Of a stretch of DNA of 64,000 nt, positions 48,293 to 60,768 are shown in pieces. The notes below the pieces were generated by a model. It worked only from the letters and a program-made list of their open reading frames with translations. It did no database searches and was not told the DNA's origin. Positions within the stretch are counted from its first letter, which is position 1, and the number at the start of each line of letters is the position of its first letter. The position numbers and the translations under genes are program-made. The stretch is from a virus. The stretch is from the IMG/VR virus record IMGVR_UViG_3300027917_000019, positions 101,820 through 165,819 of that record. One strand, written 5' to 3'.

Positions 48293-48344
48293 GTGTAACC
48301 TCCAGTGGAAATTATAACACGTTTATTCGAAACTGGGAAAAGGT

Positions 48345-48515
48345 TGCCGGGTGAGGGGATCGAACCCCCATCATCCTGACCCTCTAGACTAGTATAGAGG
48401 GCTTCATCTTCCTTGCGAGAAGATTATCGGGTCTGTTGCTAGTCACTGCACGTGGGTTGACTATCCCCCACTAACTACCCGACAGGCTGTTTTTTACCGC
48501 TTAAACTAACCCGGC
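48345..48515 (-). ncRNA. tRNA-shaped RNA with 104-nt structured insert in place of the anticodon loop
   Basis: Acceptor GCCGGGT/ACCCGGC+A, D arm GTTT-AAGCGGTAAA-AAAC, stem CCTG/CAGG, variable TGAT, T arm GGGGG-TTCGATC-CCCTC. Confidence 0.8.
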
Positions 48516-48523
48516 GTAATCTT

Positions 48524-57680: not shown

Positions 57681-59309
57681 TCAGTCCTCCACTAGAACCT
57701 TTTTGATGAAGGCTGGCACTTCACGGTCACCAGCCACCAAACCAGCGATGATCACCATATCCTTTACCGGCTTATCCGGCCAGGGAGTATCACCATCCGT
57801 GAGCACCACAACCACGTTGGGCGGTTCCTTCATTTCCTGCATGGCCCGGATGCCCACACGCATGTCCGTACCGCCGCCACCCTGCATGGCCTTGATTGCG
57901 TCCTTGAAGTTGGCAATCTCCACAACCTCGCCAGCTTCCGCATCTACACTCAAGAAAACAATCTTGGCGCCTACAGCCTTGCAGATGCCCTCGGTCTCAC
58001 TGCATGCCTTGTGCAGCGGTGACCCAGTGTTCCCTCCACCCATCGAACCGGAGGAGTCTAGAACGAGTCCTACGCGGGGAGCCGGAGAGAACGTGCTTGG
58101 GAAAAGATAACTGCCTCCAGTTGCGGCGGTCATCCTACCCTGGCGCGTCCACGAGCGACTATCATGCCCGTAGGATCGCGTCACAGACTTGCGTACAAGA
58201 CGGCGGAAGTGTACACGCCAATCAACCTTGGGCGGCGTGAGAACCTTCTCAGCCCAGCGCCTCATCCCCGCAGGTACGGTGCCACGCCTTGCGTGCTCGT
58301 CGGAAAGATTCTTTGCAATCTCTCGCTGGATGGCATCATTTTCTGCCTCGGAGATTCCAGGATTCTCGGGCGTGGGATCTCCCGTCTCATAGTCTCGCTC
58401 TTCCCCGTGAGCGCCAGACCCACAGTCTTGTGGTGAGCCATCCTCTAGAGGATCTCCCCCTCCTGCGCCCTGTTCGTACAGTTCATCCTCAAGCTCCTCA
58501 TCCGTGAGGTCATTGGGATTCTTTGACTTCTGCTTCTCTCCCTGGCCTTCCTGCTTCTCTCCCTGGCCTTCCTGCTTCTCTCCCTGGCCCTGCCCTTGAC
58601 CCTGGCCTTGACCCTGTTGCTGCTTTTCTTGCTGCTTCTTATCCTTCAGATCGATAAGCTTGTAGTAGTATTCCTCAGCGATGCGATCGTCAGGAAAGAG
58701 CACGCCATACTGAGCATACTTTGTGTTGTACTCAGTAGGTAGAAGAACACCCGGAGGAAGGCAGAGAAGGGGGAATGGGAGGCTTTGGCTTTGATGCTCT
58801 GCGTGTGCCACTCGGAAAGTTTCCAAGAGATCGTCGTTGATCTCCAGGTCAGCCGCTATGTTAAACAGCTTCCATTGCGCCTGGATCTCTTCTGCTCTCA
58901 GTCCGTGGCGCCGCACAGGGTGTTGCGCCTCATGGCAGATAACTCCTGCCACATAGGCCAGTTCATGGTGGGAAGTAGCTCCGCACGTGCCACAAGGATT
59001 TTCCACACTTACAGCCTGCGCCTTGCGCATCATCCAGTGCGTGAACCCATCATTCACGTACACACGGAAATGCTTGTCCACAGCCATAGTGAGCATTCCC
59101 GCCTCAAGTCCCTTACGAAGCTCGTAGAAGTGTGGGATGAGTGCGGAGATGGCCGGAGCAAACGTTCCAAACACCGTGGAGGCTAGCAGGCGAGCAGCAC
59201 GCCACGAGCCTTCAGGAGTTTCCAGGAGCCTTTCCAGCCCAGATGCCGGCGCCGCTGGCGTTTGCTGTTGCGCTCGTTGCTGGCGAGTAGGTCGGGATCG
59301 TCGAGCCAT
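57681..59309 (-). CDS. DUF2201-type metallopeptidase-like + VWA protein
   Basis: TMAVD, CHEAQH (HExxH), NIAADLEIND, AEEYY, VDWR, DSSGSM, GGGGTDM, TDGDTPWP. Confidence 0.88.
   Translation of the reverse strand: MARRSRPTRQQRAQQQTPAAPASGLERLLETPEGSWRAARLLASTVFGTFAPAISALIPHFYELRKGLEAGMLTMAVDKHFRVYVNDGFTHWMMRKAQAVSVENPCGTCGATSHHELAYVAGVICHEAQHPVRRHGLRAEEIQAQWKLFNIAADLEINDDLLETFRVAHAEHQSQSLPFPLLCLPPGVLLPTEYNTKYAQYGVLFPDDRIAEEYYYKLIDLKDKKQQEKQQQGQGQGQGQGQGEKQEGQGEKQEGQGEKQKSKNPNDLTDEELEDELYEQGAGGGDPLEDGSPQDCGSGAHGEERDYETGDPTPENPGISEAENDAIQREIAKNLSDEHARRGTVPAGMRRWAEKVLTPPKVDWRVHFRRLVRKSVTRSYGHDSRSWTRQGRMTAATGGSYLFPSTFSPAPRVGLVLDSSGSMGGGNTGSPLHKACSETEGICKAVGAKIVFLSVDAEAGEVVEIANFKDAIKAMQGGGGTDMRVGIRAMQEMKEPPNVVVVLTDGDTPWPDKPVKDMVIIAGLVAGDREVPAFIKKVLVED
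58530..58616. repeat. 21-bp tandem repeat (EGQGEKQ) plus QG repeats in linker
   Basis: CTGCTTCTCTCCCTGGCCTTC about 3 copies. Confidence 0.85.
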
Positions 59310-59315
59310 GATTAC

Positions 59316-59343
59316 ACCTTGTGTCGGTTGGGAGATTTGTCAA
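59316..59343 (-). promoter_or_regulatory. Sigma70-like promoter, leaderless
   Basis: TTGACA-N16-CAAGGT-N6-ATG. Confidence 0.55.
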
Positions 59344-59352
59344 GGAGAATAG

Positions 59353-59412
59353 TGGAGGCCAAAGGAATCGAACCTTTGTACGGGAGAGAGGACCGTAGGA
59401 CCACGCGCCCCC
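59353..59412 (-). ncRNA. 60-nt tmRNA-TLD-like / D-stemless tRNA-Ala-like RNA
   Basis: GGGGGCG CGTGGTCC TACGG TCCTCTCTC CCGTA C AAAGG TTCGATT CCTTT GGCCTCC A; G3.U70 and A73. Confidence 0.65.
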
Positions 59413-59468
59413 GTTGCCTCTTCAAATCTTTAGACAAGAAGAGGCGTTTGGGTCTTGCTATCCGCGAG

Positions 59469-60713
59469 TTACTTGCGCTGCCCAGATCCCCGGCTCAGAC
59501 CGGACTTCTCTCGGGCCTTGAACAGCTTGATAGCGACGTCCGGAACAGCCACACCCGGAGGCTTGCGATCCGTGAGAAGCTTCGCAGCACTCATGGCGTT
59601 GTCGGGCTTCTCCTCCAAGACCGGCTCCAAGACTCGCATCGCCCCCGTCCACCTAGCAGGGCGATCCTCACGCTCCTGCTGGGCGGCGATAGCTACCGAA
59701 TCTAGCTGCAGGCGCAGCTTGTCCGGGCGAGCCCAGATGTGGTTGGGAATGCTTGCACGGATGCTTTCCGGCGTAGCTCCCTCCCTCATGGCTGCAGCCA
59801 ACACATCCTCCGGCTCCGCGAGATCGAATTCCCGCAGGTATGCCATGAATGCCTTAGCCACACCCTCACCAAGACAACCTTCCAAAGCCATCATACAAAG
59901 CTTGCTGGACGGTTCCTCGCCTAGCGAAAGGCAGGCTGCCAGCAAACGAATGACATTGGACCACTGCCGCTTGGATGCCCAAGGCTTGTGGCAGTTGGCT
60001 TCCGTTGTGGTGGGCTGGTGCCCCTTCATGGTGTTGGAAAGCGCCGCGTTTTCCGCTACGAAAGCAGTCACAATCGTGGCTGCCACCGGGCGGAAACGTT
60101 GCTCCCAATCCGGCTCCAGGAACCTCACGTGCGCTCCCATGCCCGGACCACCGCGTTCGAAGTCGAGCCAGTCAGCCAGCGGAAGCTCCCACTGGATCTC
60201 GCACACACGGTTGATTTCCGGCGCCGCCCAGTCACGACCGGCCGCAGCACACCAAACAGGGTTTGCAGCGATGATACGCCCGACGGTGTTGGGCAGGGTC
60301 GCATCGCCCGCGCGCCCATCCTGAACGAGCGTCATGGTAGCCGCGCCCACCTGTTGAGGACAGCTACTAGCCTCATCCCCAAACCAGATCCCATACGCGG
60401 CATCGATCAGATCTCGAATATCCTTCAGAGGCATTCGTTCGAGACAGTTCAATTCCTTGTTGTGGGCTGGAATACCTGCGATATCTTCCGGAGCCGTCTG
60501 GGGCAGCGTCGTGGTTGCCACGTGGAATTTCTTGGTGAGCTTGCGCCTGATTGCCTCCTTACCAAGAATTGCTCCCATGACCTCCACGCCCTGGGTCTTA
60601 CCTTCCCCGGGCACATCCACGAGCAGCACAGGCATGGTACGACCACCGTACCAGCCTAGCTGCACACAGATGGACATTAGCTCCATGCAGTAGTTACGAA
60701 ACTTTGCAGCCAT
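59469..60713 (-). CDS. MoxR-like AAA+ ATPase partner of DUF2201/VWA
   Basis: PGEGKT, PEDIAGIP, FGDE, IAANP, NR, S.RQW. Confidence 0.85.
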   Translation of the reverse strand: MAAKFRNYCMELMSICVQLGWYGGRTMPVLLVDVPGEGKTQGVEVMGAILGKEAIRRKLTKKFHVATTTLPQTAPEDIAGIPAHNKELNCLERMPLKDIRDLIDAAYGIWFGDEASSCPQQVGAATMTLVQDGRAGDATLPNTVGRIIAANPVWCAAAGRDWAAPEINRVCEIQWELPLADWLDFERGGPGMGAHVRFLEPDWEQRFRPVAATIVTAFVAENAALSNTMKGHQPTTTEANCHKPWASKRQWSNVIRLLAACLSLGEEPSSKLCMMALEGCLGEGVAKAFMAYLREFDLAEPEDVLAAAMREGATPESIRASIPNHIWARPDKLRLQLDSVAIAAQQEREDRPARWTGAMRVLEPVLEEKPDNAMSAAKLLTDRKPPGVAVPDVAIKLFKAREKSGLSRGSGQRK

Positions 60714-60740
60714 TTTCCTCTCTCTCTTTCTTACTCGTAC

Positions 60741-60768
60741 AGAGTAATGCGTTCTCTCTCTAAGTCAA
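60741..60768 (-). promoter_or_regulatory. Sigma70-like promoter for AAA gene
   Basis: TTGACT-N16-TACTCT, then GAGG RBS. Confidence 0.6.

Follow-up and report, generated by a model that had tools for sequence, protein, structure and literature searches.

In Vibrio cholerae, OppZ and CarZ are autoregulatory small RNAs (sRNAs) that derive from 3' untranslated regions (UTRs) and are released by an endonuclease (PMC7398697). Here, we describe a phage locus that comes closest to these systems in its logic: a tRNA-shaped RNA of 60 nt, encoded on the minus strand at positions 59353 to 59412 of a 64,000-nt stretch of DNA (the window), which is the right-hand 64 kb of the virus record IMGVR_UViG_3300027917_000019 (165.8 kb, judged 98% complete). 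The element lies in the 3' UTR of a gene for an AAA_5 ATPase. On balance, it is probably a tRNA-scaffolded RNA, derived from the AAA mRNA and directed against the ribosome-binding site (RBS) of that same mRNA, which would feed back on AAA translation.

As with OppZ and CarZ, the element is found at the 3' end of the mRNA that it would regulate and on the same strand, its release would require an endonuclease, and it can pair with the translation start of its own operon in what would be a negative feedback (compare PMC7398697). There are also clear differences: the Vibrio RNAs are generated by RNase E cleavage and stop at the intrinsic terminator of the operon (PMC7398697), while the phage element is shaped like a tRNA, is preceded by a stable hairpin instead of being followed by a terminator, and would be released by RNase P. 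Plant mitochondrial t-elements offer another parallel since they are tRNA-like folds in longer transcripts that set mRNA ends by means of tRNA-processing enzymes (PMC1920247); the phage fold, too, is embedded in a longer transcript and abuts an mRNA end. Unlike t-elements and the MALAT1-associated mascRNA, which are eukaryotic or organellar, the element belongs to a phage. MALAT1 has a protective structure immediately 5' of its RNase P site and sets free an RNA some 60 nt in length; in the same manner, the phage locus has a hairpin just 5' of the putative RNase P site and a tRNA-shaped element of 60 nt. In a scan of 401 nt at lenient thresholds, the window element gave no match to the mascRNA-menRNA model of Rfam. 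We know of no antisense seed in t-elements or mascRNA that is directed against the RBS of their own gene.

Other parallels concern the body and the loop. The tRNA-like domain (TLD) of transfer-messenger RNA (tmRNA) and the TLD-only tmRNAs of mitochondria likewise join acceptor stem and T arm to a D region without a stem, with a helix at the position of the anticodon stem, here called helix 2; the window copy even has G3.U70 together with A73. Unlike in tmRNA, G3.U70 is not conserved, there is no open reading frame (ORF) for a tag, CCA is not encoded in four of the seven loci known, and helix 2 is a short capped hairpin, the loop of which has a conserved complementarity of its own. In engineered tRNA scaffolds for producing recombinant RNA in Escherichia coli, a foreign segment replaces the anticodon arm and the chimera is processed and stabilised as a tRNA (PMC3753655). 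Those scaffolds are laboratory designs, whereas the element, which in addition has no D stem, would be a natural one. It looks like a natural counterpart of such a scaffold, closest in logic to OppZ and CarZ and in anatomy to t-elements and mascRNA. OppZ and CarZ depend on Hfq. In Staphylococcus aureus, RNAIII and RsaE use C/U-rich hairpin loops to bind purine-rich Shine-Dalgarno sequences and to block initiation, and the element similarly exposes a C/U-rich loop on a stable stem that can pair with a purine-rich Shine-Dalgarno sequence. However, RNAIII and RsaE are sRNAs of the usual stem-loop kind, each with a promoter and a terminator of its own, while the element is a tRNA mimic in the 3' UTR of its own target. 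A full-text literature search, the coverage of which is incomplete and which is no proof of novelty, returned no description of a tRNA-shaped anti-RBS RNA.

The preliminary description of this DNA had given the 60-nt sequence, read from 59412 to 59353, and its anatomy of acceptor, unpaired GG region, 5-bp helix and T arm; the letters are identical and the anatomy is correct. The acceptor stem is made up of GGGGGCG (59412-59406) and GGCCUCC (59360-59354), which form six pairs including G3.U70, the seventh being a G.G mismatch. It is followed by an unpaired, D-like region of 8 nt that holds GG (59405-59398) and by the 5-bp helix 2, UACGG/CCGUA (59397-59393 and 59383-59379), whose 9-nt loop, UCCUCUCUC (59384 to 59392), takes the place of the anticodon loop and is the proposed anti-RBS seed. 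A single base separates helix 2 from a perfect T stem, AAAGG/CCUUU (59377-59373 and 59365-59361), with the T loop UUCGAUU (59372-59366). The discriminator is an A (59353), and the trailer after it reads CUA (59350 to 59352) rather than CCA; in the seven loci, the trailer is CUA three times, CCA three times and CUC once. This tRNA-like fold is the minimum-free-energy (MFE) structure of the isolated 60-mer, and a 101-nt stretch that includes the upstream hairpin has a z-score of -3.8 relative to shuffled sequences. The element occurs once in the window and in the genome (model match 99 bits).

Counterparts were sought on contigs of relatives, gathered by means of homologs of the downstream DUF2201 protein. 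The preliminary description had proposed a search between the AAA and DUF2201 genes of related phages, and the element is indeed present at the equivalent place, after the AAA gene, in six related contigs (L010, L012, L013, L014, L107 and L111), the DUF2201 proteins of which are 42-75% identical to that of the window; G3.U70, which had been expected to persist, is not conserved, and helix 2 is kept in six of the seven loci. A further contig, L011, holds a copy identical to the L010 element. With a covariance model based on nothing but the window sequence, all six counterparts are recovered, with E values from 6e-11 to 0.015 in 141 kb searched. MAFFT alignments of the elements were structurally wrong and were replaced by this model and a model-guided alignment. 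In the latter, 92.9% of the cells of the seven loci are paired, against 50-62% with slid partners, figures that are flattered by an alignment fitted to the structure. Compensatory changes, with both sides changed, are found in 12 of the 17 pairs, and none of 500 shuffles reaches the observed covariation score. The register that the model-guided alignment gives to the 5' strand of the L010 element is worse than the one found by eye, in which 7/7 positions pair. Independently of any alignment, the MFE structure of each isolated homolog is the tRNA-like fold.

The sequences of the six homologs are otherwise widely divergent, but all of them keep the acceptor stem and the T arm. All seven loci share the T loop UUCGAnU and have a GG in the D region, indicating that the tRNA elbow, with a coaxial acceptor/T-arm stack of 12 bp, is kept. 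L014 has no helix 2 and is reduced to a minihelix of acceptor and T arm with a linker of 10 nt, while L013 retains a D hairpin, the only one in the set, and forms a full cloverleaf. The helix-2 loop is all-pyrimidine in five of the seven loci. Taken together, a conserved tRNA-like RNA is almost certainly real. By its defining features, it is nevertheless outside the tRNA and tmRNA families: the D stem of a canonical cloverleaf is missing in 6/7 loci, and the loops are 9-12 nt long and mostly all-pyrimidine, in contrast to a canonical anticodon loop of 7 nt with U33 and a purine at position 37. Standard detectors behave in keeping with this. ARAGORN makes no call on the element or anywhere in the window, and across the seven loci it is negative in six and calls only L010, in a different register. 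No Rfam family matches in the whole window at gathering thresholds. At lenient thresholds (E up to 10, 401 nt), the only related match is to tRNA-Sec, with 14 bits (E 5.5) against a threshold of 47 bits; the tRNA model RF00005 is not listed at E up to 10, where overlapping clan matches are merged and tRNA-Sec is the best.

The loop points to a possible function. UCCUCUCUC is the exact reverse complement (9/9) of GAGAGAGGA, which is the RBS of the AAA_5 gene, 1.3 kb 5' on the same strand; the preliminary description had noticed the pyrimidine loop and had missed this complementarity. The proposed target, at 60716 to 60724 on the minus strand, spans the Shine-Dalgarno region and ends 2 nt before the ATG at 60713. 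The 9-mer has a single occurrence on the transcribed strand of the 166-kb genome. Of the 398 ORF starts in the genome, that of the AAA gene is the best partner for the loop, with a predicted duplex of -15.6 kcal/mol, the next being -13.4 kcal/mol. RBSs that consist of GA repeats are rare in this genome (3 of 262 ORFs with an ATG). There is no support for a pairing between the loop and the RBS of the downstream DUF2201 gene (AAGGUG), nor for a consistent one between the loop and an arm of the upstream hairpin.

In the relatives, the loop and the AAA RBS co-vary, as read from the L012, L111 and L010 sequences, and the seed is complementary to the start of its own operon in all four testable loci. 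The L012 loop UUCUCUCUC matches the site GAGAGAGAA (9/9), which runs into the AAA ATG. In L111, the loop UUUCUUCCUUUC faces GAGAGGAAGAAA, ending 3 nt before the AAA ATG, with 11 Watson-Crick pairs and one G.U. The L010 loop UACUCUCUC matches GAGAGAGGA, here ending 3 nt before the AAA ATG, in eight of nine positions. The complementarity ends precisely at the loop boundaries, and in a matrix of loops by RBSs, the own RBS is the best or tied best for each loop. L014, without helix 2, has an ordinary GGAG RBS which pairs poorly with every loop, and distant AAA/DUF2201 pairs without the element also have ordinary RBSs. Some loops have a second site: in L111, it is GAAAGGAAGAAA (12/12), which ends 1 nt ahead of the ATG of a gene for 329 aa, and in L012, it is another perfect match, at the RBS of a gene for 66 aa. 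These secondary targets are not homologous to one another, and the AAA RBS is the constant target. In the window, the RBS GAAAGAGGA of a 186-aa gene (52255-52247, minus strand), 2 nt before its ATG (52244), matches the loop in eight of nine positions and is a possible secondary target.

Several points weigh against this interpretation. Loop and AAA start are both present in only four loci, which are related by descent, so the independent events are few: the switch of loop and RBS in L111, a C-to-U change matched by G-to-A in L012, and the loss in L014. Both partners are of low complexity (CU and GA), RBSs are purine-rich anyway, and loops shuffled with preservation of their composition do equally well in 1.6-3% of trials. 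A full helix of 9 bp would be strained in a hairpin loop of 9 nt, and there is the one mismatch between loop and RBS in L010. L107 has helix 2 with a loop that is not all-pyrimidine; its AAA start is off the contig. Finally, the hairpin upstream of the element is followed by a U tract in L014 and L111 only, and it may terminate most transcripts before the element there. With these points taken into account, the pairing of loop and RBS still appears quite likely to be functional, going by the comparison of the loci.

The position of the element agrees with an origin from the AAA mRNA. It is located between two minus-strand genes, in the 3' UTR of the upstream one, and lies 35-91 nt 3' of the upstream stop codon in the seven loci. 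The upstream gene (59469 to 60713) encodes a divergent AAA_5 (MoxR/CobS-like) ATPase of 414 aa, in which the start, MAAK, and the Walker A motif are conserved in the alignment; the window protein itself has no Pfam match, and its L014 ortholog matches PF07728 (AAA_5) with E 1.8e-4. The downstream gene (57681 to 59309) encodes a 542-aa protein with a DUF2201_N (putative metallopeptidase) and a DUF2201 VWA-like domain (Pfam E 9e-17 and 5e-10). Just upstream of the element there is a hairpin (59416 to 59445, minus strand) of 8 bp and an inner 3 bp, of -16 kcal/mol and without a U tract, which ends 3 nt before the first nucleotide of the element, G+1. An equivalent hairpin, of -16 to -27 kcal/mol and ending 1-6 nt before G+1, is present in all seven loci. 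The scanner calls neither a sigma-70 promoter nor an intrinsic terminator at the element. Since there is no room for a promoter between hairpin and G+1, the RNA must come from a longer transcript together with the upstream gene. In L010, where a small ORF intervenes between the AAA gene and the element, three inserted ORFs part the element from the DUF2201 gene while it stays beside the upstream unit, which assigns it to the 3' end of the AAA transcription unit.

How such an RNA could work may be pictured as follows. The body, with its acceptor stem, T arm, elbow of GG and T loop, and no D stem, mimics the top half of a tRNA. Minihelices of acceptor and T arm with an elbow are substrates of bacterial RNase P. 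The host RNase P would cleave at G+1, leaving the AAA mRNA with a protective 3' hairpin 3 nt upstream of the cut, and the RNA may then be trimmed behind the discriminator by an activity that processes tRNA 3' ends. We infer that processing takes place at both ends and yields a discrete product, a compact and stable RNA of about 60 nt. The tRNA body would thus provide processing and stability, while the loop, stacked on helix 2 in the manner of an anticodon, would be a pre-formed seed. This 9-nt loop would pair with GAGAGAGGA, be it in cis, on the transcript from which it comes, or in trans, and pairing over positions -11 to -3 would block binding of the 30S subunit, so that the effect on AAA synthesis would be repressive, a negative feedback. 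In some relatives, the RNA might also reach one or two other genes with matching RBSs.

If this is true, a natural tRNA body serves as the scaffold for an antisense seed, and tRNA-like processing signals are united with autoregulatory sRNAs derived from 3' UTRs, a combination not seen so far in bacteria or phages. RNase P substrates in phage mRNAs could then release regulators. The combination of hairpin, RNase P site, tRNA body and programmable loop would be a compact, self-processing and re-usable design, and the odd GA-repeat RBSs of some phage genes would be explained.

Other explanations attach less weight to the loop, or a different one. The fold could be purely a signal for processing and stability, as t-elements and mascRNA are: it would recruit RNase P and RNase Z, split the AAA and DUF2201 cistrons and leave the AAA mRNA protected by its hairpin, the match of loop and RBS being incidental. 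The constant placement of a hairpin directly before G+1 fits this well, as do the different loop of L107 and the reduction of L014 to acceptor and T arms, so that the minimal conserved core is an RNase P substrate. Such a signal would leave unexplained why the loop is all-pyrimidine in five loci, why it is the exact complement of the RBS with co-varying changes, and why the loss of helix 2 coincides with an ordinary RBS. In this pure form, we consider the explanation unlikely; the RNase P processing signal that the preliminary description had offered as an alternative survives as one part of the explanation favoured here, not as the whole. A tRNA decoy or degenerate tRNA, acting as bait for host nucleases that target tRNAs or as a ligand of a phage Ro60-like protein or of tRNA-modifying enzymes, would be in keeping with the other non-canonical tRNA-like RNAs and the TROVE (Ro60-like) gene of this genome, and the full cloverleaf of L013 with its D hairpin suggests descent from a tRNA. 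Yet the element is far from the cluster of tRNAs and mimics, on the opposite strand, and fixed between the same two genes in the relatives; no gene related to defence or tRNA is linked to it, and the loops of the other mimics in the genome show no RBS complementarity above chance, while that of the element does. A decoy is distinctly unlikely. It could also be imagined that the RNA is a ribosome-directed mimic with an 'anticodon' of 9-12 nt that reads the RBS. It would dock on the 30S subunit or ribosome via its body, with the loop on -11 to -3 of the AAA mRNA, as a gene-specific adaptor that parks or recruits ribosomes instead of a passive antisense block; once processed, it would in this phage possibly be charged with alanine via G3.U70 and A73. 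We regard this as highly improbable.

The preliminary description itself had proposed a mini-tmRNA, that is, a TLD-only tmRNA which is alanylated, binds SmpB and EF-Tu and either rescues ribosomes or titrates trans-translation. The proposal started from the G3.U70 and A73 of the window copy, its stemless D region and its T arm, and the 5' and 3' ends of the element do resemble those of the phage's own tmRNA. A minihelix with G3.U70 is a substrate of alanyl-tRNA synthetase, and by analogy the window RNA could be alanylated if it were processed and given a CCA. But loss of G3.U70 among homologs had been named as grounds for abandoning the proposal, and the 3:70 pair is G.U in the window only (1/7); elsewhere it is G-C (in four or five loci, according to the register of L111) or A-U, the model alignment miscounting L010 as G.U, and position 73 is A, U or C. 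As G3.U70 is lineage-specific, alanine charging cannot be the function of the family. The recommended model searches likewise turned out against it: the tmRNA model RF00023, the alpha-, beta- and cyano-tmRNA models and the mitochondrial (mt-tmRNA) model do not match at their gathering scores or at E up to 10 in the 401 nt, the best score there being the 14 bits of tRNA-Sec, while the full tmRNA of the phage, as a positive control, scores 135 bits with the tmRNA model, and ARAGORN is negative, as mentioned. Moreover, CCA is not encoded in the window copy, and the phage already has that complete tmRNA of 285 nt with a tag ORF (C1:38264-38548 of the genome, plus strand, tag ADNAALPLAA as predicted by ARAGORN), about 120 kb away on the opposite strand. 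No phage-encoded SmpB or CCA-adding enzyme was found in the genome. Finally, a mini-tmRNA gives no role to the conserved loop. It is extremely improbable, and a false lead is thereby removed, the element not being a second, minimal tmRNA. A feature at the level of DNA is scarcely credible, be it an attachment-site (att) remnant of a host tRNA or tmRNA, or inverted repeats (GAGAGAGGA ... TCCTCTCTC) that flank the AAA gene as recombination sites. Loop and RBS do form a 9-bp inverted repeat that brackets a single gene. However, the repeat coincides precisely with the RNA loop, the additional perfect matches of L111 and L012 are found at the RBSs of other genes, where they flank nothing, and both acceptor strands are present and covary, which is not required of an att remnant. 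The identity with a host tmRNA or tRNA 3' end that such a remnant would entail was also missing, as no exact match to the 23-nt 3' part exists in the genomes of 185,579 bacterial and archaeal species, one genome being searched for each.

Further searches for the locus added little to the set of relatives. Phage GenBank records, searched by blastn and by tblastn with both flanking proteins, contain no useful close relative. IMG/VR, searched by protein pattern and exact DNA, contains no close relative and one distant AAA locus, L018, without the element. Scans of JGI metagenomes by protein alignment and DNA pattern, and a scan of GTDB genomes with the AAA alignment, gave nothing.

Some features of the neighbourhood deserve a description of their own. 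Upstream of the AAA gene, the sequence TTGACT-N16-TACTCT (60741 to 60768, minus strand) was read by eye and is below the threshold of the consensus scanner. The same layout is found in L012 (TTGACA-N16-TACTGT) and upstream of the phage tRNA-Glu gene (TTGACA-N16-TACACT), and it may tentatively be taken as the AAA promoter, in which case the 5' UTR would be about 21 nt long and consist mostly of the GA tract. The element is immediately followed by a TTGACA hexamer (59338 to 59343, minus strand) upstream of the DUF2201 gene, where the scanner calls no promoter of the sigma-70 type; it is also present in L012, L107 and, adjoining the DUF2201 gene, L010. The DUF2201 leader is conserved as TTGACA, about 16-18 nt, ACACAAGGUGUAA and ATG (window 59310-59343, minus strand; L012:3750-3779; L010:3165-3200), and could be a phage-specific promoter or leader. 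The inserted ORFs of L010 (L010:2545-3200; NCBI GCA_040960765.1, a contig of 172 kb) encode small glycine/tyrosine-rich proteins, each ending in EWIW, and the DUF2201 gene of this contig is called as two ORFs of 266 and 308 aa.

The genome is rich in tRNAs and tRNA-like RNAs. It has 38 tRNA genes, with a cluster at C1:27263-40595 that includes a gene with the anticodon CUA, of the amber suppressor type and labelled tRNA-Pyl by ARAGORN. A second non-canonical tRNA-like RNA of about 171 nt is found in the window (48340-48520, minus strand), with a T arm and a 7-bp acceptor (GCCGGGU/ACCCGGC); its anticodon loop is replaced by additional hairpins of about 100 nt, its MFE is -65.6 kcal/mol (z -2.7), and its loops have no RBS complementarity. 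At C1:33455-33560 (plus strand), ARAGORN leaves uncalled a tRNA-like gene with a perfect acceptor (GGAGGGG/CCCCUCC), a D-loop insertion of about 40 nt, an odd anticodon loop (UAUUUAA) and, as in the element, a CUA trailer in place of CCA. Two regions on the plus strand, C1:27755-28446 and C1:39503-39766, contain tRNA mimics with intact acceptor and T arms and aberrant anticodon arms, one with a 17-nt loop. A tRNA-like module is located at C1:28093-28148, and the TROVE gene is nearby; the mimics and this gene together suggest a phage system similar to Ro and Y RNAs.

The pattern CTCTCTC...GGTTCGANTCC occurs at 88 loci in IMG/VR, mostly in ordinary tRNAs. Among such genes, a tRNA-Glu(CUC) family linked to capsid genes was considered as kin of the element and set apart, as no convincing RBS complement is present nearby. 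This tRNA-like gene recurs between the genes for the major capsid and the head-tail connector, about 10 nt behind the former (L062:1465-1537 and some 20 similar IMG/VR loci, among them L020, L026, L047, L048 and L053). Rfam does not list it as a tRNA at E up to 1 and gives scores below threshold for tRNA-Sec (26.7 bits) and mascRNA-menRNA (24.9 bits). ARAGORN labels it tRNA-Glu(CUC); position 37 is a U, the loop contains CUCUCUC and the trailer is CUA.

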